DNA from: an uncultured Chloroflexia bacterium
GTDB taxonomy: Bacteria > Chloroflexota > Anaerolineae > CG2-30-64-16
Direction of reading: 5' to 3'
Assembly (NCBI GenBank): GCA_963800615.1
Contig: CAWDBO010000021.1
Coordinates: 504,166-568,165 of the forward strand
DNA length: 64,000 nt
The translations under genes were made by a program, and so were the position numbers. Below, in pieces: positions 36,023 to 62,454 of this stretch. The notes beneath the pieces were generated by a model. It made no database searches, was not told where the DNA came from, and worked only from the letters and a program-made list of their open reading frames with translations. The stretch's first letter is position 1. Every line of letters begins with the position of its first letter.

Positions 36023-36064
36023 GCTGAGTCTCCTTGTGAGTGAGGTGCTTGGATCAGATCGCCA

Positions 36065-36236
36065 CGAGACCTCCGAGGTCCTCGCCAGCGCTGCTGGCGC
36101 AAGACCTCGGAGGTCAACTCGGACCTCGGAAGTTAGCTCGGAGCCCCGAAGTCAGCTCGTACCTCGGAGGTCAGCCCGTATCGAGGTGAACTCGGGGACT
36201 CGGACCTCGGAGGTCAGCTCGGACCTCGGAGGATGC
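36065..36236. repeat. Array of about 8 tandem 19-20-bp repeats (consensus GACCTCGGAGGTCAGCTCG) with the same palindromic core as the 34.4-kb hairpins
   Basis: Read directly; lies between the amidohydrolase 3' end and the MttB-1 RBS. Confidence 0.65.
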
Positions 36237-36244
36237 TAACCCGA

Positions 36245-37638: not shown

Positions 37639-37649
37639 GCGCCCCCGCG

Positions 37650-38590: not shown

Positions 38591-39704
38591 CGGTTATCCT
38601 CTTGATCCGGAAGCGTGCGAGCACGAACGCGGCCAGCACGCACAACAGCAGGATGGCCTGCATCGCCTCGATAATCGCGGACGAAACGCCCGTCGTCGTC
38701 TGGAGCCGGGCCGCGCCGTTGGTCAGCCCGCCGAACAGGACCGCGGCCAGCACCACGCCCAGCGGATCGAGGTTGGCGAGCATCGCCACGATGATGCCCG
38801 TGTAGCCCAGCCCCGAGGCCAGGTCGAGCACCAGGCGGTACTGCACGCCGAACAGCTCGCCCGCGCCGGCCAGCCCCGCCAGCCCCCCGCTCAGGATCAT
38901 CACGACGACGATCGTGAGCGGTACGTTCGTGCCCTTGAACCGCACCGCGGTCGGATTGAAACCGAGCGCCCGTATCTCGAAGCCCAGCGGCGTCCGGTCC
39001 AGCAGGATCTTCACGAACGCAGCCGCGAGGAGCGCCACGAAGAGCCCGATGTGCAGGCCGGAGGCGGGCACAAGGTTCGGGAACCGCAGCGGCGCAGGGA
39101 TCAGCAGCGACTGCTGGTAGGCCGAGCTCGGGTCCTTCCAGGGACCGCCGTTCGAGACCATGAAGGCCACGAAATAGAGCATGATGTAGTTCAGCATCAT
39201 GGTGGAGATGATCTCGTCCACCCGGAAGCGCACCTTGAGCAGGCCGGATATCGCGCCCAGCAGCGCGCCGCCCGCCAGCGCAAAGACGAAGACCAGGACG
39301 AACAGCACCGGCCGTGGGTAGCTGCTGAACAGGGTGTAGGCGAAGAACCCGGCCGCGCCGCCCGCGATGAGCTGCCCCTCCTGCCCGATGTTCCAGATCT
39401 TGGCCCGGAAGGCGACGGCGGCCGACAGGCCGGTCAGGGTGAGGGTGGTGGCGCGCACCATCGTCTGCAGGACCGCCCGCCGGGTGCCGAACGCGCCCAG
39501 GAACAGCGCGCCGAATGCTTCGGCCACGTTCACCTTGGCGATGAGCAGAAACACGCTCGAAATCGCCAGGCCGACGATAATGGCAACTACGATCCACAGC
39601 ACCTGCGACCAGCGGCCCGCGTCCTCGCGCTGCTCGACGCGCCACCGCGGCCTTCTCCCGGCGTCCTGGGTCTCGGCTGCGAGGGATGTGTCGGGGTTGG
39701 TCAT
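38553..39704 (-). CDS. BMP-family ABC transporter permease 1
   Basis: ATG (MTNPDTSLAAETQ..) in an ATGA overlap with the upstream ATPase stop; about 380 aa with multiple TM helices (ORF 38553..40070). Confidence 0.65.
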   Translation of the reverse strand: MTNPDTSLAAETQDAGRRPRWRVEQREDAGRWSQVLWIVVAIIVGLAISSVFLLIAKVNVAEAFGALFLGAFGTRRAVLQTMVRATTLTLTGLSAAVAFRAKIWNIGQEGQLIAGGAAGFFAYTLFSSYPRPVLFVLVFVFALAGGALLGAISGLLKVRFRVDEIISTMMLNYIMLYFVAFMVSNGGPWKDPSSAYQQSLLIPAPLRFPNLVPASGLHIGLFVALLAAAFVKILLDRTPLGFEIRALGFNPTAVRFKGTNVPLTIVVVMILSGGLAGLAGAGELFGVQYRLVLDLASGLGYTGIIVAMLANLDPLGVVLAAVLFGGLTNGAARLQTTTGVSSAIIEAMQAILLLCVLAAFVLARFRIKRITDADSAAADGSHR

Positions 39705-41221: not shown

Positions 41222-41348
41222 GCGCCTCTTGCTAACCGTCGTGCTCTCGAACCGGCGCCGCTTGGCGCCCGCTCTATGAGCAGGGAGAGGTGTCTCCCGC
41301 GCTCGGGCGGAAGACACCTCTTCGCGTCATGACTTGCGTCCGTGTCCG

Positions 41349-42524
41349 CTACTGATCGGATTTCGGGGTGTCGATATTGACGGGCACCGTGAACTTGCCG
41401 CTCATGATGTCGGCCTGCTTGGCCTTGATCGCGTCCAGCACGTCCTGCGGCACCTGGGCGGCCTGCGGGTTCCAGCCCGCCAGGTCCGATCCGCCGTCCT
41501 TCATGCCGAACCAGACCGGCTTGTCGTTGCCGGCCCACGGCTTGCCTTCGGCCGCATGCGCGTACCACTGGTCGATGGCCCACTTGATCCCCGGGTCCCA
41601 CCGGGCCACGGTGCTGTTGGGCACGTTCTTCGGTGCCAGCGCGCTCTGGTCGCCGAAGTTGCCGAAGCACTGGATGTTCTTCGACGTGCAGGCTTCCCAC
41701 CCGTCGGCGAGCTGCAGCATGTAGTCGACGCCGGCCGCGGCCTGCGCGCTCGTCGCCTCCGCGCCCTTGATCGGGTCGTACCAGCTCTGGATGAACGAAA
41801 CCGTCGTCTTCACGTTCGGGTTCGCATCCTTCGCGCCCTGGAAGAACGCGTTGATCTCGTCGTTGACGTCGTCGGCTTCGAAGGTGCCCACCGCGCCGAC
41901 CCGGTTGGTCTTGGTCATCTTGCCTGCCATCATGCCCAGCAGGTAAGCCGGCTCGTGCACCCGCATATACACCCACTGCTGGTTCTTGCCGAGCCCGCGG
42001 TTGCCCGAGCCTGTCACCACGAACATCGTGTTCGGGTACTGGTCCATCACCTTCTCGACCTGGTCCGAGTAGGTGCTGTTCGTCCAGATGATGTCATACT
42101 TGCCGCTGTCGGCATAGTTCTGAATCACCGGCGTGGCGTCGTCGCCAAACGTGTTGTCGGTCACCTGGTAGGTGATGTTCAGCCCGTGGGGGCTTTCGGC
42201 CTTGACGCGGTCCAGTGACTTCAGGAACTGCGCGTCCCACTGGCTTTCGAGGCTGCAGCAGGTGATGACGGCGATACGGAGGTCCTTGGGTGCGGCGCCG
42301 CTGCTCGCGGCCGGGGCCTTTGTCGGCTCAGCTGCCGGCGCTTGTGCCGCGGGTGCCTTCGTCGGCTCGGCCGCGGGTGCTTGGGCTGCCGGCGCCTGTG
42401 TCGCAGGTGCCTGGGCAGGTGCGGCAGGGGCCGGCGCGGCGGGCGCTGCGCAGGCCGCGGTGACGAGGATCACCACGACCAGTGCAACTGCGAGGACAGC
42501 GAGTGAGTTCCTTCTCTCCAGCAT
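41349..42524 (-). CDS. BMP-family (PnrA/Med-like, nucleoside-type) ABC substrate-binding lipoprotein
   Basis: ATG at 42524 with AGGAGGAAGG RBS; lipobox LVTAACAAP; APA/QAP linker; BMP fold. Confidence 0.8.
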   Translation of the reverse strand: MLERRNSLAVLAVALVVVILVTAACAAPAAPAPAAPAQAPATQAPAAQAPAAEPTKAPAAQAPAAEPTKAPAASSGAAPKDLRIAVITCCSLESQWDAQFLKSLDRVKAESPHGLNITYQVTDNTFGDDATPVIQNYADSGKYDIIWTNSTYSDQVEKVMDQYPNTMFVVTGSGNRGLGKNQQWVYMRVHEPAYLLGMMAGKMTKTNRVGAVGTFEADDVNDEINAFFQGAKDANPNVKTTVSFIQSWYDPIKGAEATSAQAAAGVDYMLQLADGWEACTSKNIQCFGNFGDQSALAPKNVPNSTVARWDPGIKWAIDQWYAHAAEGKPWAGNDKPVWFGMKDGGSDLAGWNPQAAQVPQDVLDAIKAKQADIMSGKFTVPVNIDTPKSDQ

Positions 42525-42614
42525 GACCTTCCTCCTGTTTGCTGTGTTTGTAAGCGTCGCGCATTGCGCTGTATTTGTAAGCGTCGCGCCGGGATGGGCC
42601 GGCGCTCCATCCTC

Positions 42615-42649
42615 CCCCTCTCCTGACCCGCAGGTCAGGAGAGGGGGCC
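42615..42649 (-). terminator. 15-bp perfect-stem hairpin (CCCCCTCTCCTGACC-CGCA-GGTCAGGAGAGGGGG) immediately 3' of MttB-2
   Basis: Read directly; lies between the MttB-2 stop (42662) and the direct-repeat element upstream of the BMP operon. Confidence 0.45.
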
Positions 42650-42661
42650 AGGGGGTGAGGT

Positions 42662-44035
42662 TCAGTTCAGAGGCAACCCCCACCCTTTCGCCTCCTGCTT
42701 TATCTCCTCGTAAAGACCCATCCATTCACGGCTCGGCTCGACCGTCTCGACGTCGTAGACCTCGTCAAACGGCCGGCCGTACGGCTTCTTGTCAAGCTGC
42801 TCGCGATACGCTTCGTACGCGCACCGCACGATCTCGTCCGCGCGGCCCCGCTCCAGCCCGGCCGCCGCCCGCATGACCTCTCCGTTGAAACGCGCCTCGA
42901 GCCCGCTGAAGTGGGCCGGAATGCTGCCGGTGGCCGAGCGCGGGCCCAGGATGCGGCTGCAGCCGGAAACGGTGCAGAGCGTCGTAAAGGCAACGCATTC
43001 GTGTAGTAACACTCTCGTCCCGGGACCGCCCACGGGCGTCAGGGTCATGTTCGTCATCAGGTGCGTGTTCCGGGCCAGCGCCTGGCAGGCGAGGCTCGTC
43101 GCCTGCATGACCTCTTTTCCCGTATCGTTGAACTGGAACGGGTGCGTCGGCGACGACCCGACGCAGGTTGCCATGAAGACCGCGCTGAGCGCGATCATCG
43201 CCGCCGTTATCAGGACGGCCTGGCCTTCGACGCCGCCCCCCAGCCCGCCGTAGATCGGGTTGGCGTAGGGATCGACGATCCCGCCCATCCGGATGGCGTG
43301 CGTTAGCTTGTTAAGGATATCGAAGTTCGTCTTGAGCTCGGACAGGATGCCGAACGTGTGCAGGTCGGTCGACCGAAGTCCCAGGGGATTCGCCGTCGAA
43401 AGCTGACCGGCAGCGCTCATGCTCAACATCACGCCGGTCCACGCCATGCCCGGCCGGCCTGCGCGCTCCAGAACCTGCCGCATCAGGTCGACCTCTTCCC
43501 ACGCCGCGAGGATCTCGGTGGGCGAGCCGACCCGGATCTCCTGGCCGCGCACGGTCATCAGGCTCGGCGCACAGGTCACGTCGACCAGCGGCTCTTTCAC
43601 GTAGCTGAGCATCACGGGAACGAACAATTCCTCCGGCAGCGGCGAGCCGATCGGACTGCCCATGTTCAGGGGTGGAAATGCAGCGCCAATTGGCCGGAAG
43701 CGTTCGTGGACCGCGTCGGTTCCGGTTCCCTCCCATACGTCGGCAGGCGCCTCACGTAGGAGGTCGAGGAGCTCCTGCCGGCTGTGCAGAATAACCCGGT
43801 TGGTGGATTGGCAGTATACACCGCAGCCCGCGAGAAAGTCCAACGCGGCTTCGAAGGTGCGGTCCGCCAGGTCGTCGTCGAGGTTGACGATGTGGTCCCG
43901 GTCGACGTGGACGCCGTACGCCCGCACGACCCGGCGGATGCCCTGGGTCACTTGCCGGTTGAACGCTTCCTCTTCCAGGAGCGGGCCGGTCAGGCTGCGG
44001 TTGAGGAGTTCCAGCATCCTGCCTGTGAGGTCCAT
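42662..44035 (-). CDS. MttB-superfamily methyltransferase, non-Pyl (MttB-2)
   Basis: 457-aa uninterrupted ORF with full-length MttB-family similarity. Confidence 0.8.
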   Translation of the reverse strand: MDLTGRMLELLNRSLTGPLLEEEAFNRQVTQGIRRVVRAYGVHVDRDHIVNLDDDLADRTFEAALDFLAGCGVYCQSTNRVILHSRQELLDLLREAPADVWEGTGTDAVHERFRPIGAAFPPLNMGSPIGSPLPEELFVPVMLSYVKEPLVDVTCAPSLMTVRGQEIRVGSPTEILAAWEEVDLMRQVLERAGRPGMAWTGVMLSMSAAGQLSTANPLGLRSTDLHTFGILSELKTNFDILNKLTHAIRMGGIVDPYANPIYGGLGGGVEGQAVLITAAMIALSAVFMATCVGSSPTHPFQFNDTGKEVMQATSLACQALARNTHLMTNMTLTPVGGPGTRVLLHECVAFTTLCTVSGCSRILGPRSATGSIPAHFSGLEARFNGEVMRAAAGLERGRADEIVRCAYEAYREQLDKKPYGRPFDEVYDVETVEPSREWMGLYEEIKQEAKGWGLPLN

Positions 44036-44062
44036 CTGTGCGCCTCCGCCCTCTGATCTACG

Positions 44063-44711
44063 TCAGGCGGTCATCAGCCTGGCCGCCTGCTTCACCGCGT
44101 CGATCGCGTCGTCGCCGTAGCCGTCCGCGCCGGCCTTCCTGGCCCATTCCACGCTGACCGGCCCGCCGCCGACCAGGATTTTGAAGCGGCCGCGATGCTT
44201 GTCGCTCTCTTTTACCATGTTGATCGCGTCGCGCACGTAGGGCAGGGAGGGGAGCATCAGGGCCGAGATCGCGATGACGTCGGCCTTGAACTCGCTCGCG
44301 CCCTTCACCACGTCGAGCGGCGAGACGTTGACCCCAAGGTCGCGCACCTCGAAGCCGTTGACTTCCAGCATGGAGCGCACGATGTTCTTGCCGATGTCAT
44401 GCAGGTCGCCCTGGATGGTGCAGATTGCGACCCGGCCCCTGTACGTGGCCTCGATCTCGCCAGCCTTGACATAAGGCTTCAGCGCTTCCTGGACCGCCTT
44501 CACCACGTCGGCCGATTCCATCATCTCGGGCAGGAAGATGTCGAGCCGGCTGAACTGGTCGCCGATGTCCTGCAGGCAAGGTTGGATGCAGTCGAGGAAG
44601 ATTGCGGCCGGCGACTCGCCCGCTTCGGCCAGCCGCTGCGCCTCGGCTGCGCCGGCATCGACGTCGCCCTCCCGGATCGCGCTGTTCGAGCGCCGCGTAC
44701 AGGGGCTTCAT
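44063..44711 (-). CDS. Cobalamin-binding corrinoid protein 1 (B12-binding-2 cap plus Rossmann B12 domain, MtmC/MttC/MtgC-like); one frameshift in the cap domain
   Basis: ATG at 44711 (MKPLYAALEQR..), then ILEGDVDAGAAEAQRLAEAG..DIFLPEMMESADVV; DLHDIGKNIV (DxHxxG) in ORF 44063..44524. Confidence 0.7.
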
Positions 44712-45365
44712 GCCCGCGCCTCCACCCCTAACAGCGCCTTGCAGAGCTCGACCGCGGCCGCGGCATCGCCGGCATAGCCGTCCGCGCCTACCTCTTTGGC
44801 CCATTCTTCGGTAGCCGCGCCGCCGCCGACGATCACGCGGAAGCGCTGCCGCGCGCCGACTTCGTCGAAGACGCGGACCGTGCGCTTCGCCGCGGGCAGC
44901 GTCGTCGTCATCAGCGCCGACAGCGCGACGATCTGGCAGCCCGTTTCCTCCGCGGCCGAGAGGAACCGGCTCGGCTTCACGTCGCGGCCGAGATCGACGA
45001 CCCGGAACCCGTGCGCGGTCAGCAGCGCCTTCACGATGTTCTTGCCGATGTCGTGAACGTCGCCCTCGACCGTGCCCAGGACGACCGTGCCCAGGACCAG
45101 CGGCGCCTGACCCGCGGCCTTCGTGGCTTCTTCCAGCACCGCGGTCGCCGCCTTCGCCGCCTCGCCCGCCATCATCAGCTCGGGCAGGAAGATTTCGAAG
45201 TCCTGGAAGCGCCGGCCGACCTCGCTCAGCGTCGGCACGACCACCTCCTGCACCACCGCAAGCGGGTCCGCGCCCGCGGCCACGGCCTCCCGGGTCAGCT
45301 GCCGCGGCGCGCACGTCGTCCCCCTCGCGCAGCGCGGCGCCGAGCTCTTCGTAAATGCGTTCCAT
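44708..45365 (-). CDS. Cobalamin-binding corrinoid protein 2; one frameshift near 45300; TGA stop overlaps the corrinoid-1 ATG (ATGA)
   Basis: MERIYEELGAALREGDDVRAA.. then TREAVAAGADPLAVVQEVVVPTLSEVGRRFQDFEIFLPELMMAGEAAKAA...VEGDVHDIGKNIV...; contains in-frame 15-bp tandem duplication (VLGTVVLGTV). Confidence 0.7.
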
Positions 45366-45366
45366 T

Positions 45367-46775
45367 TCACCTGCCACGGCGCACCTCTTTCCAGCCCCTG
45401 TCGAGGTCCAGTCCCATGTCGCACAGCTTCGTCCGCACTTGCCCGTAGAGGTCCAGCCATTCGGGCAGCGGCTCGACGGTGTCCAGGTTGTAGATCTCCG
45501 CAAACGGCTTCCCGGGGTCCGGCGTCGCCGCCTGGCTCTCGTAATGCGCCAGCATCGCCAGCGCCAGCTCGTTCGCCTCGCCGCGCTTCAGCCCGCGGCT
45601 CGCGTGCATCACCTCTGCGTTGAAGCGGCACTCCAGCCCGCTCGTGTGATCCGCGCGGCTCCCGCCGGTCGCACCCACGCCGAGGCTGTTCACCCCGCAC
45701 ACCATCGAGACCACGGACACGGCCGCGACCTCCCACAGGACCTGTTCGGTACACAGCCCAGCCCGGGTGTATGGCGTGCAGGTCGTGATCATCGGCGTGT
45801 TGCGGCTCAGCGCCTGGCCCGAGACCGCGTAGACCCACAGGCCGAGCCGGTCGCTGTTGTGCGACCACCGGAGCGACATGTGGCCGTGGATGTGGTAGGA
45901 GCAGTGGTAGCAGACCGCGCCCAGGATGTGCGCGGCGACGGTTGCCACCGCGGTCCCTTCCGCGCCGCCCGCCAGCCCGCCGATCAGCGGCGTCTGCAGG
46001 TCGACGATGTGCATGTCCCGGCCGAGCATCCAGGCGACGCGCGATAGCTGGTCGTAGTTCGTCTTGAGCTCGGGGATCTGCGTCACCAGGAACGCGTCGG
46101 AGGGCCGGAGCCCGTTGTCCTCGTCGCAGGCGGCCAGTTTGGCCGCGCAGTTCAGCGGCGCCGCAACGTCGTTGATGTGCATCCCCGGCCGGCCCGCCTT
46201 CCGCAGCGCCTCCACGCGCGGCCGCGGCGTCGCGCCGGGCTGCCAGCATCTCGTTCGGCGACCCCGGCACGATCGGCCGGCCCATGTAGGTGGAGACCGA
46301 CCCGGCGCCCAGGCAGTCGACCAGCGGCTCGACCGCGCAGCTTTCGAGGATCAGCGGGTGGCAGCGCTCGCTGCACGGGGTGCCGGTCGGACCGCTGTGG
46401 ATGACCGCGGGCGCAGTGCCCTCCACCTCCAGATGCTCCATCCGCACCGCGTCGCGGCCCGTCCCGAGCCGCACGCTCGCCCGGCGCGGCCGCCACCGCG
46501 TCCTCGACCTCCTCCCGGCTGAAGAGGATGCGGCGCTCGGTCGTCTGGTTATAGACGCCCATTTCGACGAACAGGTCGAGCCCGGCCCGGTACACCCGGT
46601 CCGCCAGGTCGTCGTCCGCCGGAACCACCTTGTTGCGGTCAAACTTGATCCCGTAATGCTTCACGAGCTCGCTGATTCGACGGGCGAGGGCCATGTCGAA
46701 GTCGGACTCGCGGGTGAACGGTCCGTTCTCCGACCGTTCGACGATGACGGGTAAGCGGTTGCTGGATGCTTGCAT
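45367..46775 (-). CDS. MttB-superfamily methyltransferase (MttB-3); 2 frameshifts
   Basis: N-terminus MQASSNRLPVIVERSENGPFTRESDFDMALARRISELVKHYGIKFD (46152..46775), middle in frame of 44708..46642, C-terminus 45367..46215. Confidence 0.7.
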
Positions 46776-51435: not shown

Positions 51436-52669
51436 CTATCTACCGGGCGGAGCCACCCACGTCTGCACCGTGGTGTCCGCCACCACCCGGCCGTTTCTGA
51501 CGACCTTCCGCTGCGCCGGCTGCAGTTGCAGCGCCTCCTGCGCATCCGCCGCGGGCAGGAAGACCATGTCCGCCGGCGCCCCGACCGCCACCCCGTAGCC
51601 GGTCAGCCGCAGCGCCCGCGCCGCCCGGCCCCGCGGCATGTCGAACGCGGTCTCGATCTCATCCGGCGCGGTCAGGTGCGCGGTCACCGAGGTGAACATC
51701 GCGACCTCGAGCATGTCCATCCGCCCGAACGGGAAGAAGATGTTGCGGACGTCGTCCATTCCGCACGCCACGTTCACGCCCGCGGCCAGCAGCTCCTTCA
51801 CCCGCGTGATGCCCCGGCGCCGCGGCTCGCGGTCCCCGCGGCCCTGCAGGTACAGGTTGACCAGCGGGTTGGTGATCACGTTGATCTGCGCCTCGGCCAC
51901 CCGCTCGATCACCCGCGCCGCGTACGCGTCGTCGTACGCGGCCAGCGCGCAGCAGTGCCCCGCCGTCACGCGTCCCTGGTAGCCGTGCCGGATCGTTGCC
52001 TCCGCAAGCAGCTCCAGGCTGCGGGAAGCCGGGTCGTCCGTCTCGTCCACGTGCATGTCCACGTCCGCGTCGAATTCCTCCGCGACCTCGAAGCAAAGCT
52101 CGATGTGCCTCGCCGCGGCCGCGGGCGATGCCTCGTGGTGCGGCATGCCCCCGACGACGTCCGCGCCCTGCCGCATCGCCTCCCGCATCCACCTCACCCC
52201 GGCCGGGTCGTCGATCAAGCCCAGCTGCGGGAAGGCGACGATCTGCACGTCGACCAGCCCGCGGAAGGCGTCGCGCGCCGCCACCACCGGCGCCAGCAGC
52301 CGCACCTCCGACACCGGGTCGACGTCCACGTGGCTGCGGATCCACCCCGTCCCGTTCTGCAGCGCCAGCCCCAGGGCGCGGCAAGCCTTGCTGAAGACGT
52401 CCTCGTGCGTCCGCGCCCGCTTGATCTCCGCGTTGATCTCGATCGCTTCCGCCAGCGTGCCCGACCGGTTCGCCGGCTCGACAGAGATAGGCGCAGTCAA
52501 GGTGCTGGTGCGCGTCGATGAACGGCGGCGTCACCATCATCCCGCTCACGTCGCACTCCGCCGCGGCCGCCCCTCCGTAGCGCGCCTCAATCGCCGCGAT
52601 CCTCCCCCCCGCCACGGCAATATCCACCCGCTCCGTCGCCCCCGGGAAGTGCGCCCCCCGAAAGACCAT
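51436..52669 (-). CDS. Cytosine-deaminase (CodA/AtzC)-like amidohydrolase; one frameshift near 52500
   Basis: N-terminus MVFRGAHFPGATERVDIAVAGGRIAAIEA..VTPPFIDAHQHLD (51659..52747); remainder in 51436..52500. Confidence 0.65.
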
Positions 52670-52750
52670 CTCACAATCTGCCCTTGTCACCCCCACCTCC
52701 CCGTACGGGCGACCGGCCGGTCGCCCGTACCCCCGCATGGCCTCCATCCC

Positions 52751-55086
52751 CTACGCGCCTCCATCGATGGCCGCCAGCACTCTCTCGGGGGTGAGGGGTA
52801 TCTCGTTGATGCTGACGCCGAGCGCGTCCGCAACCGCGTTGGCGATCGCGGGCGCCGTCGACGTCACCGTCGACTCGCCGATGCCCTTAGCGCCGAGCGG
52901 CGCGTGCGGCTCCGGTATCTCGACCGTCGTCACCTTCATGGGCGGCACGTCGTCGGCGGTGGGGATCAGGTACCGGTCGAGCGAGCCGTTCAAGGTCACC
53001 CCCTGCTCGGTCACCAGCTCCTCCAGCAGCGCATAGCCCAGGCCCATCGTGGCCCCGCCTTCCAGCTGCCCCCGCACCGAGCCGGGGTTGATGATCCGGC
53101 CCGTGTCCTGGGCAATCACCAGCTCCTCGACGGTCACCTCGCCGGTCTCGGTGTCGACCAGGACCTTCGCCACCTGGGTTCCGAAGGTAAACACCTCGTG
53201 TGCGTACGGGTAGCCGTCCGCGGGGAAGTCGGCCGCGTATTCCATCGCATAGTACCCCTCTGCGTGCAGGCGGCGGCCGGTGGCATGACCCCTCGCGGCC
53301 AGCGCCGCCACGGACACCGGCAGCGCCTCATCTTCCGCATACACCCGCCCGCCCCGCAGGGCCAGGAGTCCCCTGGGCAGGCCCGTCTCCTCCGCGGCCA
53401 CGTCGAGGAGCGTCTCACGGATCGGCCGGGCCGCGTCGAGCACCGCGTTGCCGCTGAGGAAGGTCTGGCGGCTGCCCACGGCCGGCCCTGAGTCCGCCGT
53501 CCGCTCCGTGTCCGGCCCGATGACCCGGATGCTGGGGAGCTCGACGCCGAGGGCTTCCGCCGCGATCTGCGCCAGCGCCGTGTGGATGCCCTGGCCCATC
53601 TCGGTCGCGCCGGTCCGCAGCACCACCGAGCCGTCGCGCGCCATGTCCAGGCTCGCGGCGGAGTGGTCCGGCACGTTCCGTCCGAGCCCGATGGTGAAGA
53701 TGATCGAGCCCATGCCCCAGCCGCGCCGCAGGTGTGGGGCCGGCTGCCTGGGCTCTTCCCCGCGGCCTGCCCACCCCGACAGCCTCGCCGCCTCCTCCAT
53801 CGTCGCCCGCGCGGGCCGCCCCTCGCGGACGGTCGCGCCGGTGGGCAGCACGGTTCCCGTATCGAGCACGTTGCGCAGGCGGATCTCGAGGGGATCGAGG
53901 CCCGTGGCCCGCGCCAGCTCGTCCATCTGCCGTTCCCGCGCAAAGGCCGCCTGGGGGATGCCGTACCCCCGCATCGCGCCGCAGAGCGGGTTGTTGGTCA
54001 GCACCGTGTAGGCTTCGATGTGCGCGTTCGGGATGGCGTACGGCCCGCCCGCGGTGACTGCCACCAGGCTCATGACCTCCGCCCCCGCTGTGACGTACGG
54101 CCCGGTGTCGCCGATCGCCGTGACGTCGATGGCAGTAATCCGCCCGTCGCGCGTGGCCCCTGTCTTGTAGCGGATCGTCACCGGGTGCCGCTTGACGTGG
54201 GTCCGCATGGACTCTTCCCGCGTCCGTACGATCCGCACCGGCCGCCCCGTCGCCTGCGCCAACAGCGCCGCGTGAATCTGCACGTGCGCTTCGTCCTTGC
54301 CGCCAAACGCCCCGCCGATCGCCGGGGTGATCACCCTCACCTGGTTCTCTGGCAGCGCGAGCGCGCGGGCGATCTGCCGCCGGTCGCGGAAGGGCGCCTG
54401 GCAGGACGCGTATACCACGATGGATCCGTCCGCAGCGACTGCCGCCAGCGCACCTTCGGTCTCCAGGAAGGCATGCTCAACCCGCTGCGTGCGGTAGGTG
54501 TTCTCGATGATGATGTCGGCCTCGGCGAAGCCGCGGCCGGGCGAGCCGTGATCGAGCACCAGGTGGCTGCACACGTTGGGTCTGTCAGACCAGACCCGGT
54601 GCGCCCCTGGCTGCATCGCTTCGACCGCGTCGTAAATGCCCGGCAGCGGTTCGTACTCCACCTCGATCGCGGCAAGGGCAGCCTCGGCCGCTTCGGGACT
54701 TTCGGCCGCCACGGCTGCGACGATATCGCCCTGGTAGCGCACCCGGTCGGTCACGAAGAGCGGCTGATCGGCGAGGTCCGAGTAGAGGTAGCTGTTCTTG
54801 CCGGGAACGTCAGCATGTGTGAGAACCGCGACCACGCCCGGCAGGCGGCGGGCGCGCGCCGTGTCCAGCCGGAGGATGCGGGCGCACGGGTGCGGCGGAT
54901 GGAGCACCCGGCCGGTGAGCATGCCGGGCACGGGCGTGCCGAGCAAGGGCGTGCCGAGCAAGGTAAGGTCAGCCACGTAGCGCGCCTGCCCCGTCACGAC
55001 CTGCCGGGAAGTTACCGCGGGCGCGGGCCTCCCGGCCACCTCCGGCAGCCCGGTTTCCTCAAGGGCACGAGGCTCGCCTCTGTTCA

Positions 55087-55087
<1 letters not shown>
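52751..55087 (-). CDS. Xanthine-dehydrogenase-family molybdopterin-binding large subunit (CoxL/XdhA/NdhL-like)
   Basis: ATG (MNRGEPRALEETG..) at 55087 in an ATGA overlap with the small-subunit stop; 779 aa. Confidence 0.75.
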
Positions 55088-55576
<489 letters not shown>

Positions 55577-55579
55577 CCA

Positions 55580-56457
55580 CAGCAGCCTTCCGCCTGCCTG
55601 TGACTGCAGCCACAGGTTCTCCAGCGCGCCGCCGTGTCTGCACTTCGACCATCCGGCGCCGGTAGGCCGCGCTGGCCCGGATGTCGGAGATCGGCGTGCA
55701 CTGCCGCGCCGCGGCCTCCGCGGCTGCACGGATGACCGGCTCGTCCAGGACCGATCCCACCAGCAGCGCTTCGGCAGCGGTGGCCCGCATCGGCGCCGGC
55801 GCCACGGAGCCCAGCGCCACCCGCGCCTCCTCGACCCTGCCGTCGCACGACAGCGTCAGCCGGACCGCCACACTGACTACGGCGATTGCCATGGCCTGGC
55901 GTCGGCCCATCTTGAAGAACGTGGCGAACGTGCGGGGCGGGGCGGGGGGCAGGATGATCCGGGTGAGGAGCTCGCCGGCCGCGAGCGCGGTGCGGCCCGG
56001 ACCGCAGAAGAAGTCGGCCAGCGGAAGCCGCCGCTCCCCGCGGCCCGCCGATTGGAGGCACACCGAGGCGTCGTAGACAAGGAGCGCGGGCGCCGAATCG
56101 GCGGCGGGCGAGGCGTGGCAGAGGTTGCCGGCGAGCGTGCCGCGGTTCTGAATGGGCGTGCTGCCGACCGAGGCGCATGCGAGGCGGAGCGCCGGGTAGT
56201 CTGCGAGCTCCGGCGCGCCGTCGGCAACCAGTCGGTGGGTCACCGTCGCCCCGATTGCGACCTCACGCCCCGCAGACACGATCCCGCGCAGGGGCAAGCG
56301 GCCGAGGTCGACCAGGGCTTCCGGGCGCAGGGCATCCGGCACGCATGGCGGGGACCAGGTCGGTGCCTCCCGCCAGCGGCCGCGCATCCTCGTACGCGGC
56401 CAGCATGTCCAGCGCCTCGGCCAGCGTGTCCGGGCGGAAATACCTCGGGCAGCTCAT
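55580..56457 (-). CDS. FAD-binding medium subunit of the XDH-family enzyme (CoxM/XdhB-like); frameshifted
   Basis: ATG (MSCPRYFRPDTLAEALDMLAAYEDARPLAGGTDLVPAMR) in an ATGA overlap with the MttB-4 stop; body in ORF 55146..56387 (..IQNRGTLAGNLCHASPAADSAP..). Confidence 0.6.
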
Positions 56458-57832
56458 CCTTCCAGCGGCAGCCCCCACTGCCTTGCGGTCTCGGCGACCT
56501 GGTCGTAGATCGCGGCCCACTCGGCCCGGGGCTGCAGCGTCGCCGGGTCGTACGCTTCGTCGAAGGGGACGCCCACCGGCTTCGTGCCAAGCAGGTCCTG
56601 GTATTCGGTCACTGCCCGGCGGACGATCTCGTCGGCCTGCTCGCGGCTCAGCCCGGCCGCGGCCCGGGCGACCTCGCCGTTCCAGCGCGCCTCCAGCCCC
56701 GTGCAGTGGTTCGGCACGACGCCCACCGCGGAGCGGACGCCCAGCACCGCGACGCGCCGCACGAAGAGGCCGTGGCAGCCATCGCGATGCACTCGTAGAG
56801 CAGCGACGGCGTGCAAGGTCCGCTGATCGGGGAGGTCATGAACTCGGTGAAGAGGTTGGTGTTGCGCGCGAGCGCGGCGCAGGCGGCGCTGACCGCCCGC
56901 AGGATGTGCGGATCGGTGGAGTTGGAGTTGAACGGGTGCGTGGGGCACGACTCGACGCTGTGGGGGAAATAGACCATCTGCAGCGCCAGGAAGCCGGCGA
57001 CGATCAGGACCGCGACGCCTTCTGCCGGGCCGCCGAGCCCGCCGAGGATCGGGTTGTAGAAACCCAGGATGACGCCGTCCTGCTCGATGCTGTGCGCGAC
57101 CTTGTTCAGCAGCTCGTCGTTCGTCTTCATCTCGCTGATCAGCGGGATGACGTGCACGTCGCTGGGACTGAAGCCGCCGCGGCTGATCGAGGAGAGGTGC
57201 CCGATGTCGCTGATCGCCATCTCCACGCACATGCGGGCAATGCCGGGCCGGCCCGCCCGGCGAGCCGCTTCCAGGCCGCAGCGGGCTTCCTGCCACGACG
57301 CGATGATCTCGTAAGCGGAGCGCGAGCGGACCTCCCGACCGAAGCTGGTCGCAAGGGTGCCTGGAACGACCAGGTCGATGAGCGGCTCCTGCCAGTAGGA
57401 TTGCATGATGGTAATCCACCGGTCCTCGGAGAGGGGAGTCCCAATCGGTCCGCCGCTCACATGAGGAGGCCGCGGGTCGCCGACCGTGCGCCGGCGCCAG
57501 ACCCGGGCGTCCGCGCCCTCGCCGTAGCTGATCTCGTCGGGACCCTGCCGGGCGGCCTGCTCGACCTCGGCGCGGGTAAAGGTGATCAGGCGCTGGGCGC
57601 CCTTGTGGAAGATGCCGGAGCCGCAGAGGAAGTCGACCGCGGCCTGGAAGACCCGGTCGACCAGGTCGTCGTCGTACTGGATGATGCGCCGCCTGTCGAA
57701 CTTGATGCCGTACTGCTTGATGACCCGTGCGACGCCGCCGGCAACGACCCTGAGGTCGAACTCCTTCTCGTCGACGAGCGGGCCGCTGTAGGCGCGGTCC
57801 AGGACGTCGAGCATCCGAGCGGTCTTCTCCAT
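56454..57832 (-). CDS. MttB-superfamily methyltransferase (MttB-4), translationally coupled to the XDH-family genes; about 1 frameshift near 56780
   Basis: ATG at 57832 with GGGAGG RBS (MEKTARMLDVLDRAYSGPLVDEKEF..) in 56648..57862; C-terminus (..GLEARWNGEVARAAAGL...QWGLPLEG) in 56454..57956. Confidence 0.7.
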
Positions 57833-58144
57833 TGCAGAACCTCCCGAGCGCTGCGCTGTCATCTGCCTGGGGATGATGACGGTGCGGGATGGAACGATGA
57901 AAGACGTCTGAAGACTTGCCCGGGGGGAGAATACATGAAACCGGAAGGCCGGTCAAATGGATCGATAGAGGTTAGGACCGGCGACGGGCCGAGCACCACC
58001 GCTAAGAACCTGAGCCGCAGTGCAAAACTGGGGATTGACACGAGTGAAAAATGGTGCTACTGTGACAGCCATCAGATGGCAGCCATCTGATCTCCTTCCA
58101 CCGCTGAGCATTTTCCTGTTTCTCTGGCATCGAGGCTAACGAGC

Positions 58145-58937
58145 ATGGAAGCCCAGGTCCCGATCCGTCCCGCTTCGCTTGCACAGCAAGTCCTGCAGAT
58201 CCTCCTCGACCGGATCCGCCAGGGTGTGTATCCGCCGGGGTCGCAGCTTCCGCCCGAGAACCAGCTTGCCACCGAGTTTGCCGTCAGCCGCGCCACCGTG
58301 CGCAGTGCGGTCGAGACCCTGGCCGGGCGCCGCCTGATCGTGCGCCGGCAAGGCGTCGGAACCTTCATCAGCCGCCTCTCGGGGCTCGAGAATCCCCTCA
58401 ACGAAGCTATGGATTTTGCCGAATGGATTGCCGGCGCGGGCTACCAGCCGGGCTATCACTTCGCGCGGGTTGCGGTGGTGCCTGCGGGCGAGCACCTGGG
58501 CGCCGCGCTGGCGCTGCCTGCAGACGCCCGGGTGCTGCAGACCTACAAGGTGTTCACAGCGGACGGCGAGCCAGTGATCTATGCCATCAATCACATCCCG
58601 GTGGCAGTGCTCGGGCCGGCGCTGGCGGAGCAGGCGGTCGCGGATCCTTGCATGACCGAGCCCCTGTTCGATTTCCTCGAGCAGCGATGCGGCGAGCGCT
58701 CCGAGTACAGCATTGCGAGCGTACGCGCCGAGCTTGCGGCGAACTGCCCGTTTCCCGGCTTTGACGCGAAGCCCGGAACGCCCGGTGCTCGTCATCGAAG
58801 AAGTGGCCTACAATGCGAGCGAAATTCCGATCTGGCATTCTTACGAGTATTACCCCGGCAACCTGATTAGTTTCGATCTCGTGCGCCAGCGAGGCTCGTT
58901 CTCGCGCTCGGCGAATCGTGGCGCGCCCCGATCATAG
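58145..58937 (+). CDS. GntR-family regulator, HutC subfamily (UTRA effector domain); one frameshift near 58780
   Basis: wHTH (LPPENQLATEFAVSRATVRSAVETL) plus UTRA (58145..58870); C-terminus ..PVLVIEEVAYNASEIPIWHSYEYYPGNLISFDLVRQR in 58713..58937. Confidence 0.7.
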
Positions 58938-58963: not shown

Positions 58964-59617
58964 ATGGCGGATGCAGCGTTGCGGAAGGCGATCCATGACC
59001 GCATCATCGACGGTGACAGTGATGCGATCGGCGAAGATGTCGATCGGGCCCTCGCGGCCGGCGACAGCCCACTCACGCTGATCGAGGAGGTGCTGAACCC
59101 GGCCCTCAAGGAGGTCGGCGACGCGTTCGACCGGGGCGACATCTACCTCCCCGAACTGATCATGGCCGCGGAGGCCATGCAGGCGGCCGTCGCCGTCGTG
59201 CAGCCGCACCTTGCCGCAAGCCAGCAGCAGGTCAGGAGCGCCGGACGGGTGGTGATGGCGACGGTCCAGGGCGACGTACACGACATCGGCAAGAACATCG
59301 TGTGCGCGGTGCTGCGGGCCAATGGGTTCGAGGTGTTGGACCTGGGCCGCGACGTGCCGGCCGCGGAAGTTGTGGCGAAGGCGCGCGAGTTCAAGGCCGA
59401 CATCATCGGCCTCTCGACGCTGCTCAGCACGACGATGCCATACTGCCGGGACACGGTCCGGCTGCTCGAGGAGCTTGGGATTCGCGACCAGTACAAGGTG
59501 TTCATCGGCGGTGGTCCGGTGACGCCGCAGTACGCCGAGGGGATCGGGGCGGTTTACGGCGGCGCCCACGCGGAGGCCGGCGTTCAGATGATGCTGCACG
59601 CGATGGGGAGGAGCTAA
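58964..59617 (+). CDS. Cobalamin-binding corrinoid protein 3 (intact)
   Basis: ATG with GGGAGGATGG RBS; cap domain plus VQGDVHDIGKNIV (DxHxxG); 217 aa. Confidence 0.85.
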   Translation: MADAALRKAIHDRIIDGDSDAIGEDVDRALAAGDSPLTLIEEVLNPALKEVGDAFDRGDIYLPELIMAAEAMQAAVAVVQPHLAASQQQVRSAGRVVMATVQGDVHDIGKNIVCAVLRANGFEVLDLGRDVPAAEVVAKAREFKADIIGLSTLLSTTMPYCRDTVRLLEELGIRDQYKVFIGGGPVTPQYAEGIGAVYGGAHAEAGVQMMLHAMGRS

Positions 59618-59620
59618 CCC

Positions 59621-60988
59621 ATGGTCGATTTCATCGAGGTCATGCGCCGCACCGAGAGCGGCCCGTACATGTCCGAGCGCGACTTCGACATCGAGATGAT
59701 CTTCAAGACCATCAGCGCGCTGGCAAAGAAGTACGGCGTGAAGTTCAACCGGAAGGAACTGATCACGCTCCAGCCCGAAATGGTGGACGGCGCCTTCCAG
59801 GCGGGACTGGAACTGGCCGAGATCGCCGGCATGTTCTGCATCAACACCTCCCGGCGCATCACTTTCACCCGTCAGGAACTGCTCGACGCGCTGCGGGTCG
59901 CGCCGCGCGAACTGCAAATCGGGTGGGGGAAGGATCAGCGCACGATCCGGGCGAAGGAGTGGGGCGTGCCCGCGCAAGCCGTTCATCTGGGGCGGTTTCT
60001 CGGGCGCGGCCATGACGGAGGAAGGGTACCGGGCGTCGATCCGGTCGTACATCAAGGAGCCCTGGTGGATGCGCTGGGCCACGGCAGCCTCTGGTGCATC
60101 GACGGGATGGAGGTGCGCACCGGCTCGCCGATGGAGGTGCGCGCGACCCGCCAGGAGCTGCTGTACGTGCGGGAGGCGCTCGCCCGCGAGGGCCGGCCCG
60201 GGATGCCCTTCGTGGCCGCCGAGAGCAGCACGACCGTCCTCGGCGACCTGGCCGTGATGCAGCCCAACCTGATGCCGCCCGGCGCATTCCACTTCGTGCC
60301 CACGCTGAACGAACTCAAGATCGACTACCACAACCTGACCAAGGTGATGTCGAGCTACGAGTACGGGGTGTACAACATCAACCTGGTCGACGCGATCGTG
60401 GGCGGTTACGCGGGTGGGCCGGAGGGCGCCGCCATCGTCACCATCGCCGCGTTCATCCTGGGGCAGATCGTCTGCCGGGCGTCCGTGTCGCTCTGCCATC
60501 CGGCGCACAACAAATGGGTTTCGACCAGCCCGGCGCCGTGCATCTGGGCCGAGAACATCGTGGGCCAGGCGTTTGCCCGGAACGCGCCGATCATCACGAT
60601 CGGCGACGTCTGGACCAGCGCGGGCACCGGCACGAAGGACATCCTGCAGGAGATCGCGGCTATCTCGATCACCAAGTCGCTGACCGGCAACAACCCGCAC
60701 GGCGTGGGCGCGACCAACGGCAAGTTCCACCACGGCAGCGGCCTCGACGTGCGCTGGATGGCGGAGTCGGCGCACGCCGCGTATAACAACCAGCTATCCC
60801 TGGAACGAGGCAACGAGATCGTCTGCGCGCTGGTCGACCGCTACGAAGGGAAATTCGCCAATCCCGACCTGGGCAAGCCGTACGACCAGGTGTACGACGT
60901 CGCCACTGCGCGGCCGCTGCCGTGGTGGCAGGAACTGTACGACGAGAACCGGCAGGAGTTCGCGCGCGACTTCGACCTGCGGCTCTAG
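59621..60988 (+). CDS. MttB-superfamily methyltransferase (MttB-5); a pair of compensating frameshifts around 59975-60090
   Basis: 455-aa ORF, MttB-like over most of its length; alternate-frame ORF 60012..60257 (MTEEGYRASIRSYIKEP..) holds the conserved stretch for that interval. Confidence 0.75.
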   Translation: MVDFIEVMRRTESGPYMSERDFDIEMIFKTISALAKKYGVKFNRKELITLQPEMVDGAFQAGLELAEIAGMFCINTSRRITFTRQELLDALRVAPRELQIGWGKDQRTIRAKEWGVPAQAVHLGRFLGRGHDGGRVPGVDPVVHQGALVDALGHGSLWCIDGMEVRTGSPMEVRATRQELLYVREALAREGRPGMPFVAAESSTTVLGDLAVMQPNLMPPGAFHFVPTLNELKIDYHNLTKVMSSYEYGVYNINLVDAIVGGYAGGPEGAAIVTIAAFILGQIVCRASVSLCHPAHNKWVSTSPAPCIWAENIVGQAFARNAPIITIGDVWTSAGTGTKDILQEIAAISITKSLTGNNPHGVGATNGKFHHGSGLDVRWMAESAHAAYNNQLSLERGNEIVCALVDRYEGKFANPDLGKPYDQVYDVATARPLPWWQELYDENRQEFARDFDLRL

Positions 60989-61033: not shown

Positions 61034-61305
61034 GCTCATCAGACGTCTGAGGTCTTTTAGACGCCGGCACCCGGATTGCCTTCTTCACTGTTTTCTGCGT
61101 CATCGAGCCCTGGATCATGCGGTCTTCATCCAGGGCAGAAACCTCCCTACAACCAAGGAGCTTGGCCGCCAGTATCTCCGTTTAGGACAAACACACATAC
61201 GGAGTGTATGCGGGCGCAATTGTTTATATTGCGCTGTGGTTCATGGCAAGGCGCAATACTCGCCCCTTGCTTAACAGTCCGGAAGTACATCAGCCAAAGG
61301 AGGTC

Positions 61306-62454
61306 CGAATGTCCCGGTCACGCACACTCATGCTCGTCTCGTTGTTCGTCCTGTTGGCAACGCTGGCCGCTTGCGCGCCGGCTGCCCCCGCCCCCGCCGC
61401 GGCCCCTGCCCCCGCTCAGCCGACGGCGCAACCCGCCCAAGCACAACCCACTGCCGCGCCGGAGCCGGTCCTGATCGGCTTCGGCTATGTCGGCCCCGTA
61501 TCCGACGGCGGCTGGACGATGACGCACGACGAGGCCCGCAAGGCCGTCGAGGCCGCATTCCCCGGCAAGGTGAAGACAGCCTACGTCGAAAGCATGCCTT
61601 ACTCGGATGAAGCCAGCCGCGCGCTCGAGCAGTTCATCGCGGACGGCGCGAAGATGATCTTCATCAATTCCGAGTATGCGGACTTCGTGAGCAAGGTCGC
61701 GGAGAAGCACCCGGACGTCCTGTTCGTCGAATGCGACGGCCACAAGGTGCTGAAGAACGAGACGTGGTTCTACATCAACCACTGGGACCCCACGTACCTG
61801 ATCGGCATGGCTGCGGGCCTGATGACCAAGTCGAACAAGCTTGGGTACATCGGGTCGTACCCCGTGCAATCGGTGTACGCCAGCGCCAACTCGTTCCAAC
61901 TCGGCGCCCAATCGGTCAATCCCGATGTCAAGACCAAGGTCGTGCTGATCAACTCCTGGTTCGACCCGGCGAAGGCCAACCAGGCGGCCAACGCATTGAT
62001 TGACGACGGCGCGGACTTTGTCATGGACATCATGGACGAGACCGCCGCGCTGCAGGTCGAGGAGAAGCGCGGGGTTTGGGGCGCGACCTGGAACACCGAC
62101 CAGCGCCAGGCGGCCCCGACGAAGTACGTAAGCTCCGTCGACCTGAACTGGAAGGACTTCTACGTCTCCCAGGTCAAGGCGATGTTCGACGGCACCTGGA
62201 ACAACACCCCGGTGCTGCTGCCCATCACGAAGGGCGTGGATCGCGACGAGTGGGGACCCAACGTGCCGGCCGACGTGCAGACGAAGGTCGACGCGGTGCG
62301 CGAGAAGATGATCAAGGAGGGGTTCAATCCCTTCAAAGGTCCGATCAAGGATTCCACGGGCAAGGTGCGGGTGCCTGAAGGCAAGACACTGACGCCGCAG
62401 GAACTGTACGAGTGGGATTGGGCCGTCGAAGGGGTGAGCGGGCTGGAAAAGTAG
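61306..62454 (+). CDS. BMP-family ABC substrate-binding lipoprotein (second copy)
   Basis: ATG at 61306 with AAAGGAGG RBS; lipobox LLATLAACAPA; APAPA linker. Confidence 0.8.
   Translation, partial: RMSRSRTLMLVSLFVLLATLAACAPAAPAPAAAPAPAQPTAQPAQAQPTAAPEPVLIGFGYVGPVSDGGWTMTHDEARKAVEAAFPGKVKTAYVESMPYSDEASRALEQFIADGAKMIFINSEYADFVSKVAEKHPDVLFVECDGHKVLKNETWFYINHWDPTYLIGMAAGLMTKSNKLGYIGSYPVQSVYASANSFQLGAQSVNPDVKTKVVLINSWFDPAKANQAANALIDDGADFVMDIMDETAALQVEEKRGVWGATWNTDQRQAAPTKYVSSVDLNWKDFYVSQVKAMFDGTWNNTPVLLPITKGVDRDEWGPNVPADVQTKVDAVREKMIKEGFNPFKGPIKDSTGKVRVPEGKTLTPQELYEWDWAVEGVSGLEK

Follow-up and report, generated by a model that had tools for sequence, protein, structure and literature searches.

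Why should a methyltransferase gene be tied to genes for a molybdoenzyme and an amidohydrolase? The question is raised by a 64,000-nucleotide stretch (hereafter, the window) of contig CAWDBO010000021.1 from an uncultured Chloroflexia bacterium, in which five collinear genes on the minus strand (51436–57832) encode a methyltransferase, the FAD (flavin adenine dinucleotide), 2Fe-2S (FeS) and molybdopterin (Mo) subunits of an enzyme of the xanthine dehydrogenase (XDH) family, and an amidohydrolase. A first, sequence-only reading had given the same gene order, taken two start/stop overlaps as a sign of tight coupling and proposed that the genes jointly catabolize an N-methylated N-heterocycle. The order was borne out by Pfam matches and by the GC content at the codon positions, and both ATGA overlaps are real: the stop of the methyltransferase gene overlaps the start of the FAD gene at 56454–56457, and the stop of the FeS gene overlaps the start of the Mo gene at 55084–55087, so that the tight coupling holds. 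A single operon is the best explanation for the five genes. The answer that we give here builds on the identities of these genes, on their translational coupling and on a linkage that is conserved among relatives.

The window is GC-rich (64–72%), with the result that lists of its open reading frames (ORFs) are full of spurious frames; genes were placed from the GC content at the codon positions (GC3 frame plot) together with Pfam matches. The methyltransferase, which had been assigned to the MttB family under the name MttB-4, proved to be something else. Its sole Pfam match is PF05369, the MtmB family, where a frameshift splits the gene into two frame pieces with E-values of 3.9e-65 and 1.9e-18; the pieces cover positions 3–354 and 357–450 of the 450-position profile (220.9 and 67 bits, the cut-off being 25), and neither of them matched the MttB family PF06253 in the Pfam scan. 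The protein also aligned over residues 7–455 with the structures of Methanosarcina barkeri MtmB (1l2q/1nth; 5.8e-64), and no NCBIfam model matched it at all. The MttB label was therefore wrong, and the MtgB, MtpB, MtcB and MtyB clades are the wrong frame of comparison; the relevant precedent is MtqB. We refer to the protein as MtmB-4. Its start at 57832 (MEKTARML...) agrees with the N-termini of its orthologs, the closest intact ones being 458 residues long, 60–72% identical and mostly from metagenome-assembled genomes (MAGs) of Chloroflexota/Anaerolineae.

The Met residue in the motif RPGIARMCVEM of MtmB-4 aligns with pyrrolysine (Pyl) 202 of the M. barkeri protein (X of GMGVXGPE) and is specified by a sense codon instead of UAG. 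The RMCVE motif is invariant or nearly so across the close orthologs. As judged from its sequence, MtmB-4 is a pyrrolysine-free MtmB homolog. Since pyrrolysine is regarded as required for monomethylamine activation (PMC13044021), the replacement of Pyl202 by Met means that monomethylamine is probably not the substrate. The window contains at least five MtmB paralogs, mutually 30–46% identical, in which the Pyl position is taken by M, T, L or V, a diversity that fits different substrates.

About 1000 pyrrolysine-free MtmB homologs are known, of which only MtqB has been functionally demonstrated (2026), the rest being of unknown function; in the MtqB/MtqC system of Methanococcoides methylutens, this non-Pyl MtmB homolog acts as a tetramethylammonium/choline:corrinoid methyltransferase (PMC13044021). 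MtmB-4 shares with MtqB the PF05369 domain and the absence of Pyl; MtqB works with a B12-binding corrinoid partner, as MtmB-4 is predicted to do. MtqB, which we compared by its description only, differs in that it is archaeal, feeds methanogenesis via a coenzyme M methyltransferase and has not been reported beside molybdoenzymes or deaminases, whereas MtmB-4 is bacterial, has its relatives in Chloroflexota and Acidimicrobiia and lies in a purine-like context. With respect to MtmB/MtmC of M. barkeri, full-length homology implies the same fold for MtmB-4, the difference being Pyl202 to Met. MtgB, MtpB, MtcB and MtyB offer a parallel in that each is a Pyl-free methylamine-methyltransferase relative re-used for another N-methyl substrate, along with a corrinoid protein, a second methyltransferase (MT2) and an activase; they belong, however, to the MttB superfamily (PF06253/COG5598) and not to PF05369.

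The linkage of MtmB-4 to the molybdoenzyme is conserved. A homolog search yielded about 195 MtmB-4 relatives, and loci (numbered L001 and so on) were taken from a scan of species-representative genomes (22 loci) and from metagenome contigs (4 loci). We counted as MtmB-4 orthologs the proteins with at least 59% identity, as informative the loci with enough downstream sequence, and as linked a same-strand Mo gene located no more than 5 kb further downstream. An orthologous Mo subunit (58–65% identical) is encoded downstream in 13 of the 19 informative ortholog loci, as against 4 of 28 cases for the other MtmB paralogs of the same loci (Fisher p = 2e-4, the loci being phylogenetically non-independent). 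The sequence-only reading had called for a check of neighborhood conservation in relatives and would have counted a lack of linkage there against itself; the outcome is that the MtmB–Mo adjacency is kept across two phyla, the linked loci coming from Chloroflexota and Acidimicrobiia, with a distant version in a third (a Desulfohalobiaceae MAG, L015; 54% identity for MtmB and 38% for Mo).

The junctions are tight in several of these loci. L016 has overlapping MtmB and Mo genes; in L002 and L023, the Mo gene begins 25–40 nt past MtmB, with no FAD or FeS gene in between, and the FAD/FeS/Mo junctions of L024 and L025 overlap by 4 or 8 nt. As a separate observation, Mo genes that directly follow MtmB stand without adjoining FAD/2Fe-2S genes at L002:11411-13651, L016:8878-11169 and L023:10407-12683, and L022:3027-7555 carries two Mo subunits in tandem.

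The wider gene content of the relatives recurs as well. In L002 and L023, the counterpart of a module that lies upstream in the window (Table 1) leads straight into the MtmB-4 ortholog and the Mo subunit, so that transporter, TRZ/ATZ amidohydrolase, MtmB-4 ortholog and Mo subunit form one uninterrupted array. In the Mo-less loci L010–L013 and L026, more MtmB paralogs follow, along with a CodA-like amidohydrolase or its paralog; in L011–L013, it is a CodA-like ortholog (65–69% identical) that still trails the MtmB array. A B12-binding gene directly precedes the MtmB-4 ortholog in L009–L013, L015, L016, L020 and L026. An adenine deaminase gene (above the TIGR01178 cut-off) comes directly after an MtmB paralog at L024:457-2217 and L025:471-2234, and an amidohydrolase scoring above the cut-off for 5'-deoxyadenosine deaminase is encoded between the genes for the MtmB-4 ortholog and for the FAD subunit in L007 (12866-14203), L024 and L025. 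Finally, the RACo corrinoid activase is encoded downstream of the CodA-like gene in L005 (17108-18904).

What kind of molybdoenzyme is it? The FAD, 2Fe-2S and molybdopterin components found in xanthine dehydrogenase are all present, as judged by Pfam. The best NCBIfam match of the Mo subunit is pucD (613 bits; cut-off, 783.65), and the scores for XdhA (534.6 versus 780) and xdhB (363 versus 849.5) also lie below the respective cut-offs; no NCBIfam model scored above its cut-off for any of the four non-MtmB genes of the cluster. The best matches in the PDB are the alpha subunit of 4-hydroxybenzoyl-CoA reductase (4-HBCR; 2e-107) and the two chains of nicotinate dehydrogenase (7e-92 and 2.5e-56). 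Alignment with bovine XDH, using a reference fragment validated against the PDB numbering, showed that the catalytic Glu is kept (E1261 = E738), as is R912 (R373), and that E802, R880 and F914 are replaced by D265, L341 and Y375, respectively. Eight Mo orthologs share this pattern, with D at E802, L, V or F at R880 and E at E1261.

These replacements have to be read with the bacterial enzymes in mind. In E. coli K-12 XdhA itself (L027; NC_000913.3 3000345-3002603), Gln and Ala stand where the bovine enzyme has Glu802 and Arg880, so that the Glu/Arg test is not diagnostic and does not exclude purine substrates in this bacterial branch. The textbook signature, as E. coli XdhA illustrates, does not extend to enzymes of the XdhA/PucD type. 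The cluster enzyme resembles PucCDE and XdhABC in having separate FAD, 2Fe-2S and Mo subunits and in keeping the catalytic Glu and R912; it differs in scoring under the equivalog cut-offs and in its gene order, which is FAD-FeS-Mo versus Mo-FAD-FeS for E. coli xdhABC.

Two other assignments were rejected. The active-site loop of the aerobic CO dehydrogenase subunit CoxL has the consensus AYRCSFR, with a Cu-binding Cys; that of the Mo subunit reads GAMRGYGIPQ, with no Cys, and the score against TIGR02416 is 284 versus a cut-off of 991. The 4-HBCR reading fell on TIGR03194 (521 versus 994.55) and on the FAD subunit, which matched TIGR03195 in two pieces with 128 bits versus 404.55. An additional insertion in the 4-HBCR beta subunit binds a 4Fe-4S cluster; the FAD subunit has about 292 residues versus the 321 positions of the TIGR03195 profile. 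The three-subunit XDH-family assignment of the sequence-only reading stands, by the subunit domains and the catalytic Glu, but the enzyme is not a canonical xanthine dehydrogenase (E802 to D, R880 to L, missed cut-offs), nor does it group with the CO dehydrogenases. The active-site check proposed in that reading does not discriminate, since E. coli XdhA also lacks the Glu/Arg pattern. The protein is best described as a putative hydroxylase-type XDH-family enzyme, neither canonical xanthine dehydrogenase nor CO dehydrogenase.

The amidohydrolase, whose orthologs are 409–421 residues long, matched the structures of E. coli cytosine deaminase, CodA (PDB 1k6w; 2.2e-80). It keeps the metal ligands and catalytic residues of CodA (H61, H63, H214, E217, H246, D313 and Q156), recognizable as HxH, the Gln of FPQ, HxxE, the His of TAGH and the DD pair. 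The pocket is changed (H312 to M, W319 to F, and FDPWYP to RNIFFP), and the NCBIfam scores lie below the cut-offs for NF005748 (cytosine deaminase; 380.8 versus 438) and NF006685 (321 versus 483). An alternative start at 52747 lies 4 nt past the Mo stop. An enamidase reading was rejected, since no enamidase was found among the PDB matches of the protein at E <= 1e-5.

The surroundings of the operon bear on the nature of the substrate (Table 1). The Bmp-family protein encoded at 61204–62454 gave as best PDB matches AtzT with bound guanine (6pi5; 3.4e-68) and the Brucella protein 3s99, in which adenine is modelled (5e-65). AtzT binds guanine with an affinity of 110 nM, adenine with 2.5 µM and an N-alkylated aminotriazine with 2.2 µM, and 3s99 holds adenine (PMC6834077). 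Compared with the AtzT pocket, S97 and W194 are kept, and Y45, E165, N218 and N220 are replaced by W, S, I and D, respectively; the aromatic sandwich is maintained as W + W, and the N220 to D change is as in adenine-bound 3s99 (PMC6834077). Such a pocket would fit a purine-like modified ligand, not identical to guanine or adenine.

Table 1. Features of the window (positions counted from its first letter)
Feature	Position	Strand	Remarks
Non-Pyl MtmB-family methyltransferase (MtmB-4)	56454..57832	-	~459 aa once frameshift corrected; PF05369
FAD-binding subunit	55579..56457	-	~292 aa; PF00941 (FAD_binding_5) + PF03450 (CO_deh_flav_C); frameshifts ~56335, ~55630; 3' end provisional
2Fe-2S subunit	55084..55578	-	~160 aa; PF00111 (Fer2) + PF01799 (Fer2_2); frameshift ~55193
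Molybdopterin subunit	52751..55087	-	778 aa, intact; PF01315 (Ald_Xan_dh_C), PF02738 (MoCoBD_1), PF20256 (MoCoBD_2)
CodA-like amidohydrolase	51436..52668	-	~411 aa; PF07969/PF01979; frameshift 52475-52490
Intergenic region between MtmB operon and divergent GntR gene	57833..58144	.	one weak sigma-70-like site partly overlapping span
GntR/UTRA (HutC-type) regulator, divergent from MtmB operon	58145..58870	+	PF00392, PF07702
Corrinoid (B12-binding) protein, nearest candidate methyl acceptor	58964..59617	+	PF02607, PF02310
Second non-Pyl MtmB paralog	59621..60988	+	PF05369 1e-70; ORF open, two compensating frameshifts ~59975 + ~60060
Bmp-family substrate-binding protein, purine-base-binding type	61204..62454	+	PF02608
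ABC (ATP-binding cassette) ATPase pieces	62618 to window end		after Bmp protein
Upstream companion module	34652..46775	-	Pfam + ortholog tblastn; its genes follow in transcription order
MtmB paralog, two frameshifts	45364-46775	-	
Two corrinoid proteins	44729-45325 + 44066-44707	-	
MtmB paralog	42662-44035	-	
Bmp binding protein, ABC ATPase, two permeases	37654-42380	-	
TRZ/ATZ-type amidohydrolase, one frameshift	36249-37638	-	
MtmB paralog	34652-36022	-	

In all, the window encodes three corrinoid proteins, two Bmp-type ABC transporters and regulators of the GntR/UTRA and AsnC types, and no RACo activase was found in it. The corrinoid protein nearest to the operon scored 199 against TIGR02370 (cut-off, 215). 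Three minus-strand genes of the URO-D family (MtaA/MtbA-like) lie at 4002–5060, 5064–6272 and 15413–16390; their products are candidates for the second methyltransferases, which would take the methyl group off the corrinoid proteins. A further run of genes on the minus strand (16500–32200) resembles a deoxy-/thio-pentose salvage set, with a glyoxalase, a xylose-isomerase-like TIM barrel, a RuBisCO-like protein, an FGGY kinase, a ribose-type ABC transporter, Dak1/Dak2, an APH (MtnK-like) kinase, an IF-2B/MtnA-like isomerase and an RpiR regulator; this run may be connected to the 5'-deoxyadenosine-deaminase-type enzyme of related loci.

As regards regulation, the GntR/UTRA gene recurs beside MtmB-4 orthologs in L001, L005, L016, L023 and L026. 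A sigma-70-like site upstream of the operon (TTGACC-17-TATTCT, minus strand 57956–57928) shows 9 matches out of 12, and the intergenic region holds 3 such sites versus 1.5 +/- 1.2 in shuffles, that is, no excess, which leaves a positional hint only; promoter and terminator counts were not above those in shuffles. The Rfam and tRNA scans of the window returned no Rfam match at gathering thresholds, no cobalamin riboswitch and no tRNA. The 4 kb or so directly downstream of the cluster (47300–51430) show weak codon periodicity and no tRNA or Rfam match, and two ORFs in this stretch, 47600–48082 (-) and 49247–50233 (+), have no Pfam match.

From these elements, we propose that the five-gene operon, as part of a larger island, serves the oxygen-independent use of N-methylated purine-like amino-heterocycles, a reading to which we give a probability of about 0.45. 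The base would be taken up by a Bmp-type ABC transporter, and the non-Pyl MtmB homolog would transfer its N-methyl group directly to a Co(I) corrinoid protein, which a RACo-type activase would keep active and a second methyltransferase would relieve of its methyl group. The demethylated base would then be deaminated by the CodA-like and TRZ/ATZ-type amidohydrolases and hydroxylated by the FAD/FeS/Mo enzyme, and each divergent MtmB paralog would have a methyl position or base of its own. Three parts of this scheme are inferred: direct action of the methyltransferase on the heterocycle, the sequence of the reactions and the nature of the substrate. Direct demethylation is favored because Pyl is absent, because MtqB uses other methylammonium donors and because the many divergent paralogs suggest distinct substrates. 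Purine-like substrates are suggested by the AtzT/3s99-like binding proteins, by the CodA-like and TRZ/ATZ amidohydrolases and, in relatives, by the adenine deaminase and the 5'-deoxyadenosine-deaminase-type enzyme; candidates would be N6-methyladenine, other methylated adenines, guanines or cytosines, and methylxanthines. The general idea of the sequence-only reading, catabolism of an N-methylated N-heterocycle, is thus supported by the purine-type binding proteins, the deaminases and the corrinoid activase of relatives, with trigonelline, its first example, less likely than a purine-type base.

Several observations weigh against this proposal. Six of the 19 ortholog loci have no Mo gene nearby, and the operon of the window has no corrinoid gene, the nearest one (58964–59617) being about 1.1 kb away on the opposite strand. 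Curated NCBIfam cut-offs are reached neither by the Mo subunit nor by the amidohydrolase or the corrinoid protein; in the Mo enzyme, the bovine E802/R880 pair is missing, and the PDB structures that match it best are those of 4-hydroxybenzoyl-CoA reductase and nicotinate dehydrogenase. The cluster genes are frameshifted as sequenced, and the function of the members of this MtmB clade is argued from gene context. Besides, bacteria hydrolyse N6-methylamino groups with release of methylamine (PMC8643624, PMC13296781), and the amidohydrolases could act first.

This last point underlies the main rival, the other explanations being weaker. In it, the amidohydrolases release methylamine from exocyclic N-methylamino groups, the MtmB homologs take the methyl group of that methylamine and the Mo enzyme oxidizes the resulting oxo-base. 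In its favor, ADE-family and adenosine deaminases are known to turn N6-methyladenine or N6-methyladenosine into hypoxanthine or inosine, with release of methylamine (PMC8643624, PMC13296781). An alkylamine is released by AtzC, to which the CodA-like enzyme is structurally related, the name-giver of the MtmB family uses monomethylamine, and MtqB has a trace monomethylamine activity (PMC13044021). In addition, the adenine deaminase gene adjoins an MtmB paralog in L024 and L025. However, none of the MtmB paralogs of the window has the Pyl regarded as needed for monomethylamine (PMC13044021), and at least five paralogs at 30–46% identity with varied Pyl-site residues are hard to square with one small substrate. 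We consider this reverse order unlikely.

It could also be that the association is one of location, the methyltransferases acting on small methylammonium or other non-heterocyclic N-methyl compounds and the purine genes forming a separate nitrogen-scavenging system that shares the island and its regulation. The single non-Pyl MtmB of demonstrated function, MtqB, acts on choline and tetramethylammonium (PMC13044021), and the 6 ortholog loci out of 19 without Mo genes point the same way. The Met-Cys pair at the Pyl site of MtmB-4 may also echo the Met and Cys reported as conserved in the MtqB clade, for which PMC13044021 gives neither residue numbers nor a sequence. Yet the start/stop overlaps and the direct MtmB–Mo adjacency recur in two phyla, the MtmB genes are interleaved singly with the deaminases and the purine-type transporter instead of forming a separate block, and no choline/betaine-type transporter was seen in the window. 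Mere co-location therefore strikes us as improbable.

A pyridinium substrate such as trigonelline, which would be demethylated to nicotinate and then hydroxylated in the manner of nicotinate dehydrogenase, finds some backing in the Mo subunit, of which nicotinate dehydrogenase is the second-best structural relative (7e-92, 2.5e-56), and in its quaternary ring nitrogen, which should be chemically a good methyl donor. Such a route could do without deaminases, of which the island conserves two to four of the amino-heterocycle type; the binding proteins resemble guanine/adenine binders; enamidase is missing from the PDB matches of the amidohydrolase at the threshold given above; and no downstream nicotinate-pathway genes were seen in the window. 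We hold this possibility to be slight.

The frameshifts call for a separate word. Four of the five cluster genes carry ±1 shifts, five within 6.4 kb, and the Mo subunit alone is intact; the shifts were located with the GC3 frame plot, three-frame views and ortholog tblastn. In MtmB-4, a G was apparently lost from a G run at ~56745–56755, the junction in intact orthologs reading CGAS-R-VLGVRS. The N-terminus of the FAD subunit, MSCPRYFRPDTLAEAL...GGTDLVPAMRAG, sits in another frame, and the frame past the 55630 shift enters the FeS ORF without a stop codon; FAD-subunit orthologs are separate 292-residue genes. Between 55560 and 55640 (-), the other two frames contain a GTG start and a TGA stop that overlap by 8 nt, as in ortholog L025; the run-on of the FAD frame may be a real fusion or may come from further sequence errors. 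The FeS motif GNLCRCTSY and the stop codon lie in a second frame, and FeS orthologs have 156–161 residues, their genes sharing 4 or 8 nt with the Mo gene.

Similar shifts occur throughout the window. At least eight ±1 shifts were found outside the cluster between 34 and 64 kb, with sites in the TRZ/ATZ amidohydrolase (~36852), a permease (~37857), another MtmB (~46480 and ~46230) and the ABC ATPase (~62654 and ~63360), and further ones between 1 and 34 kb, where the FGGY kinase (19296–20580), the IF-2B-type isomerase (30104–31232) and an ABC ATPase (23655–25832) are split. In the MtmB paralog at 59621–60988, the compensating shifts are about 85 nt apart and the stretch KPFIWGGFSGA.MTEEGYRASIRSYIKEP is readable in another frame only. 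Overall, the rate is roughly one shift per 2–3 kb of coding sequence, and the cluster, with 5 in 6.4 kb, somewhat exceeds the average of the window, though not remarkably. GC codon periodicity is unbroken past each shift, and the corrected frames have no in-frame stops. Related loci from long-contig MAGs (L004, L006, L018) are similarly broken and short-read orthologs are intact. Because the shifts are window-wide and the orthologs intact, they look like consensus indel errors of the assembly rather than gene decay, and ORF-based annotation of the record consequently comes out fragmented. The idea of a decaying array without a role in the organism, to which the five shifts in four of five genes across 6.4 kb and the truncated 394-residue methyltransferase product of the public record might lend color, is very improbable and was dropped, since comparable shifts affect transporter, kinase, isomerase and other MtmB genes across the window, codon periodicity continues through stop-free corrected frames, and breakage follows the long-contig assemblies.

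How does the proposed demethylation compare with known systems? In aerobic caffeine and methylxanthine degradation, Rieske N-demethylases (NdmABCDE) and caffeine dehydrogenase (Cdh), an XDH-family enzyme, are at work; the logic proposed here is similar, position-specific N-demethylases being combined with XDH-family oxidation of the purine ring. The demethylases of the caffeine pathway are, however, oxygenases that release formaldehyde, whereas the corrinoid methyltransferase would act independently of O2 and conserve the methyl group. Two further systems share components with the loci described here: N6-methyladenine hydrolysis (6-MAD Bh0637/Bsu06560; E. coli Add), through the adenine-/adenosine-analog-deaminase-type amidohydrolases of related loci, and the Atz s-triazine pathway, through relatives of AtzT (the closest) and, more distantly, AtzC encoded in the window. 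By contrast, both systems hydrolyse off the whole alkylamino group and have no methyltransferase, corrinoid protein or molybdoenzyme. Full-text literature searches found no paper linking MtmB homologs to XDH-family enzymes or to methylated purines, and those on corrinoids and trigonelline brought up no account of this linkage either, in agreement with the earlier statement that corrinoid N-demethylation feeding an XDH-type enzyme is undescribed. On sequence grounds, we regard the linkage as a well-supported genomic association within the corrinoid methyltransferases, with a putative substrate.

Methylated nucleobases are freed wherever RNA or DNA is turned over. Some of the known bacterial routes for them depend on oxygen. 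Others are hydrolytic (PMC8643624, PMC13296781), and in sediments caffeine has been seen to lose N-methyl groups anaerobically, a reaction to which no enzyme has been assigned (bioRxiv 10.64898/2026.01.06.697959). The operon offers a concrete, testable candidate pathway, with a short list of substrates and intact orthologs for expression, such as those of L002 (MGNS01000002.1, Chloroflexi RBG_16_57_11) and L023 (JGI Ga0071116_1000459). On a broader scale, we tentatively suggest that the widespread non-Pyl MtmB family of soil and sediment Chloroflexota and Acidimicrobiia may consist of corrinoid-dependent, O2-independent N-demethylases of methylated purines and related bases (N6-methyl- and dimethyl-adenine, methylguanines, methylcytosines, methylxanthines), with one methyl position per paralog, wired into purine catabolism through deaminases and a Mo-hydroxylase and with the methyl groups conserved as one-carbon (C1) units. 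If true, this would add a new class of substrates to the corrinoid methyltransferases and would connect, in a new way, C1 metabolism with the turnover of nucleic acids in soil bacteria that are abundant and uncultured, and in which methyl groups would be kept as C1 units and not lost as formaldehyde or methylamine.

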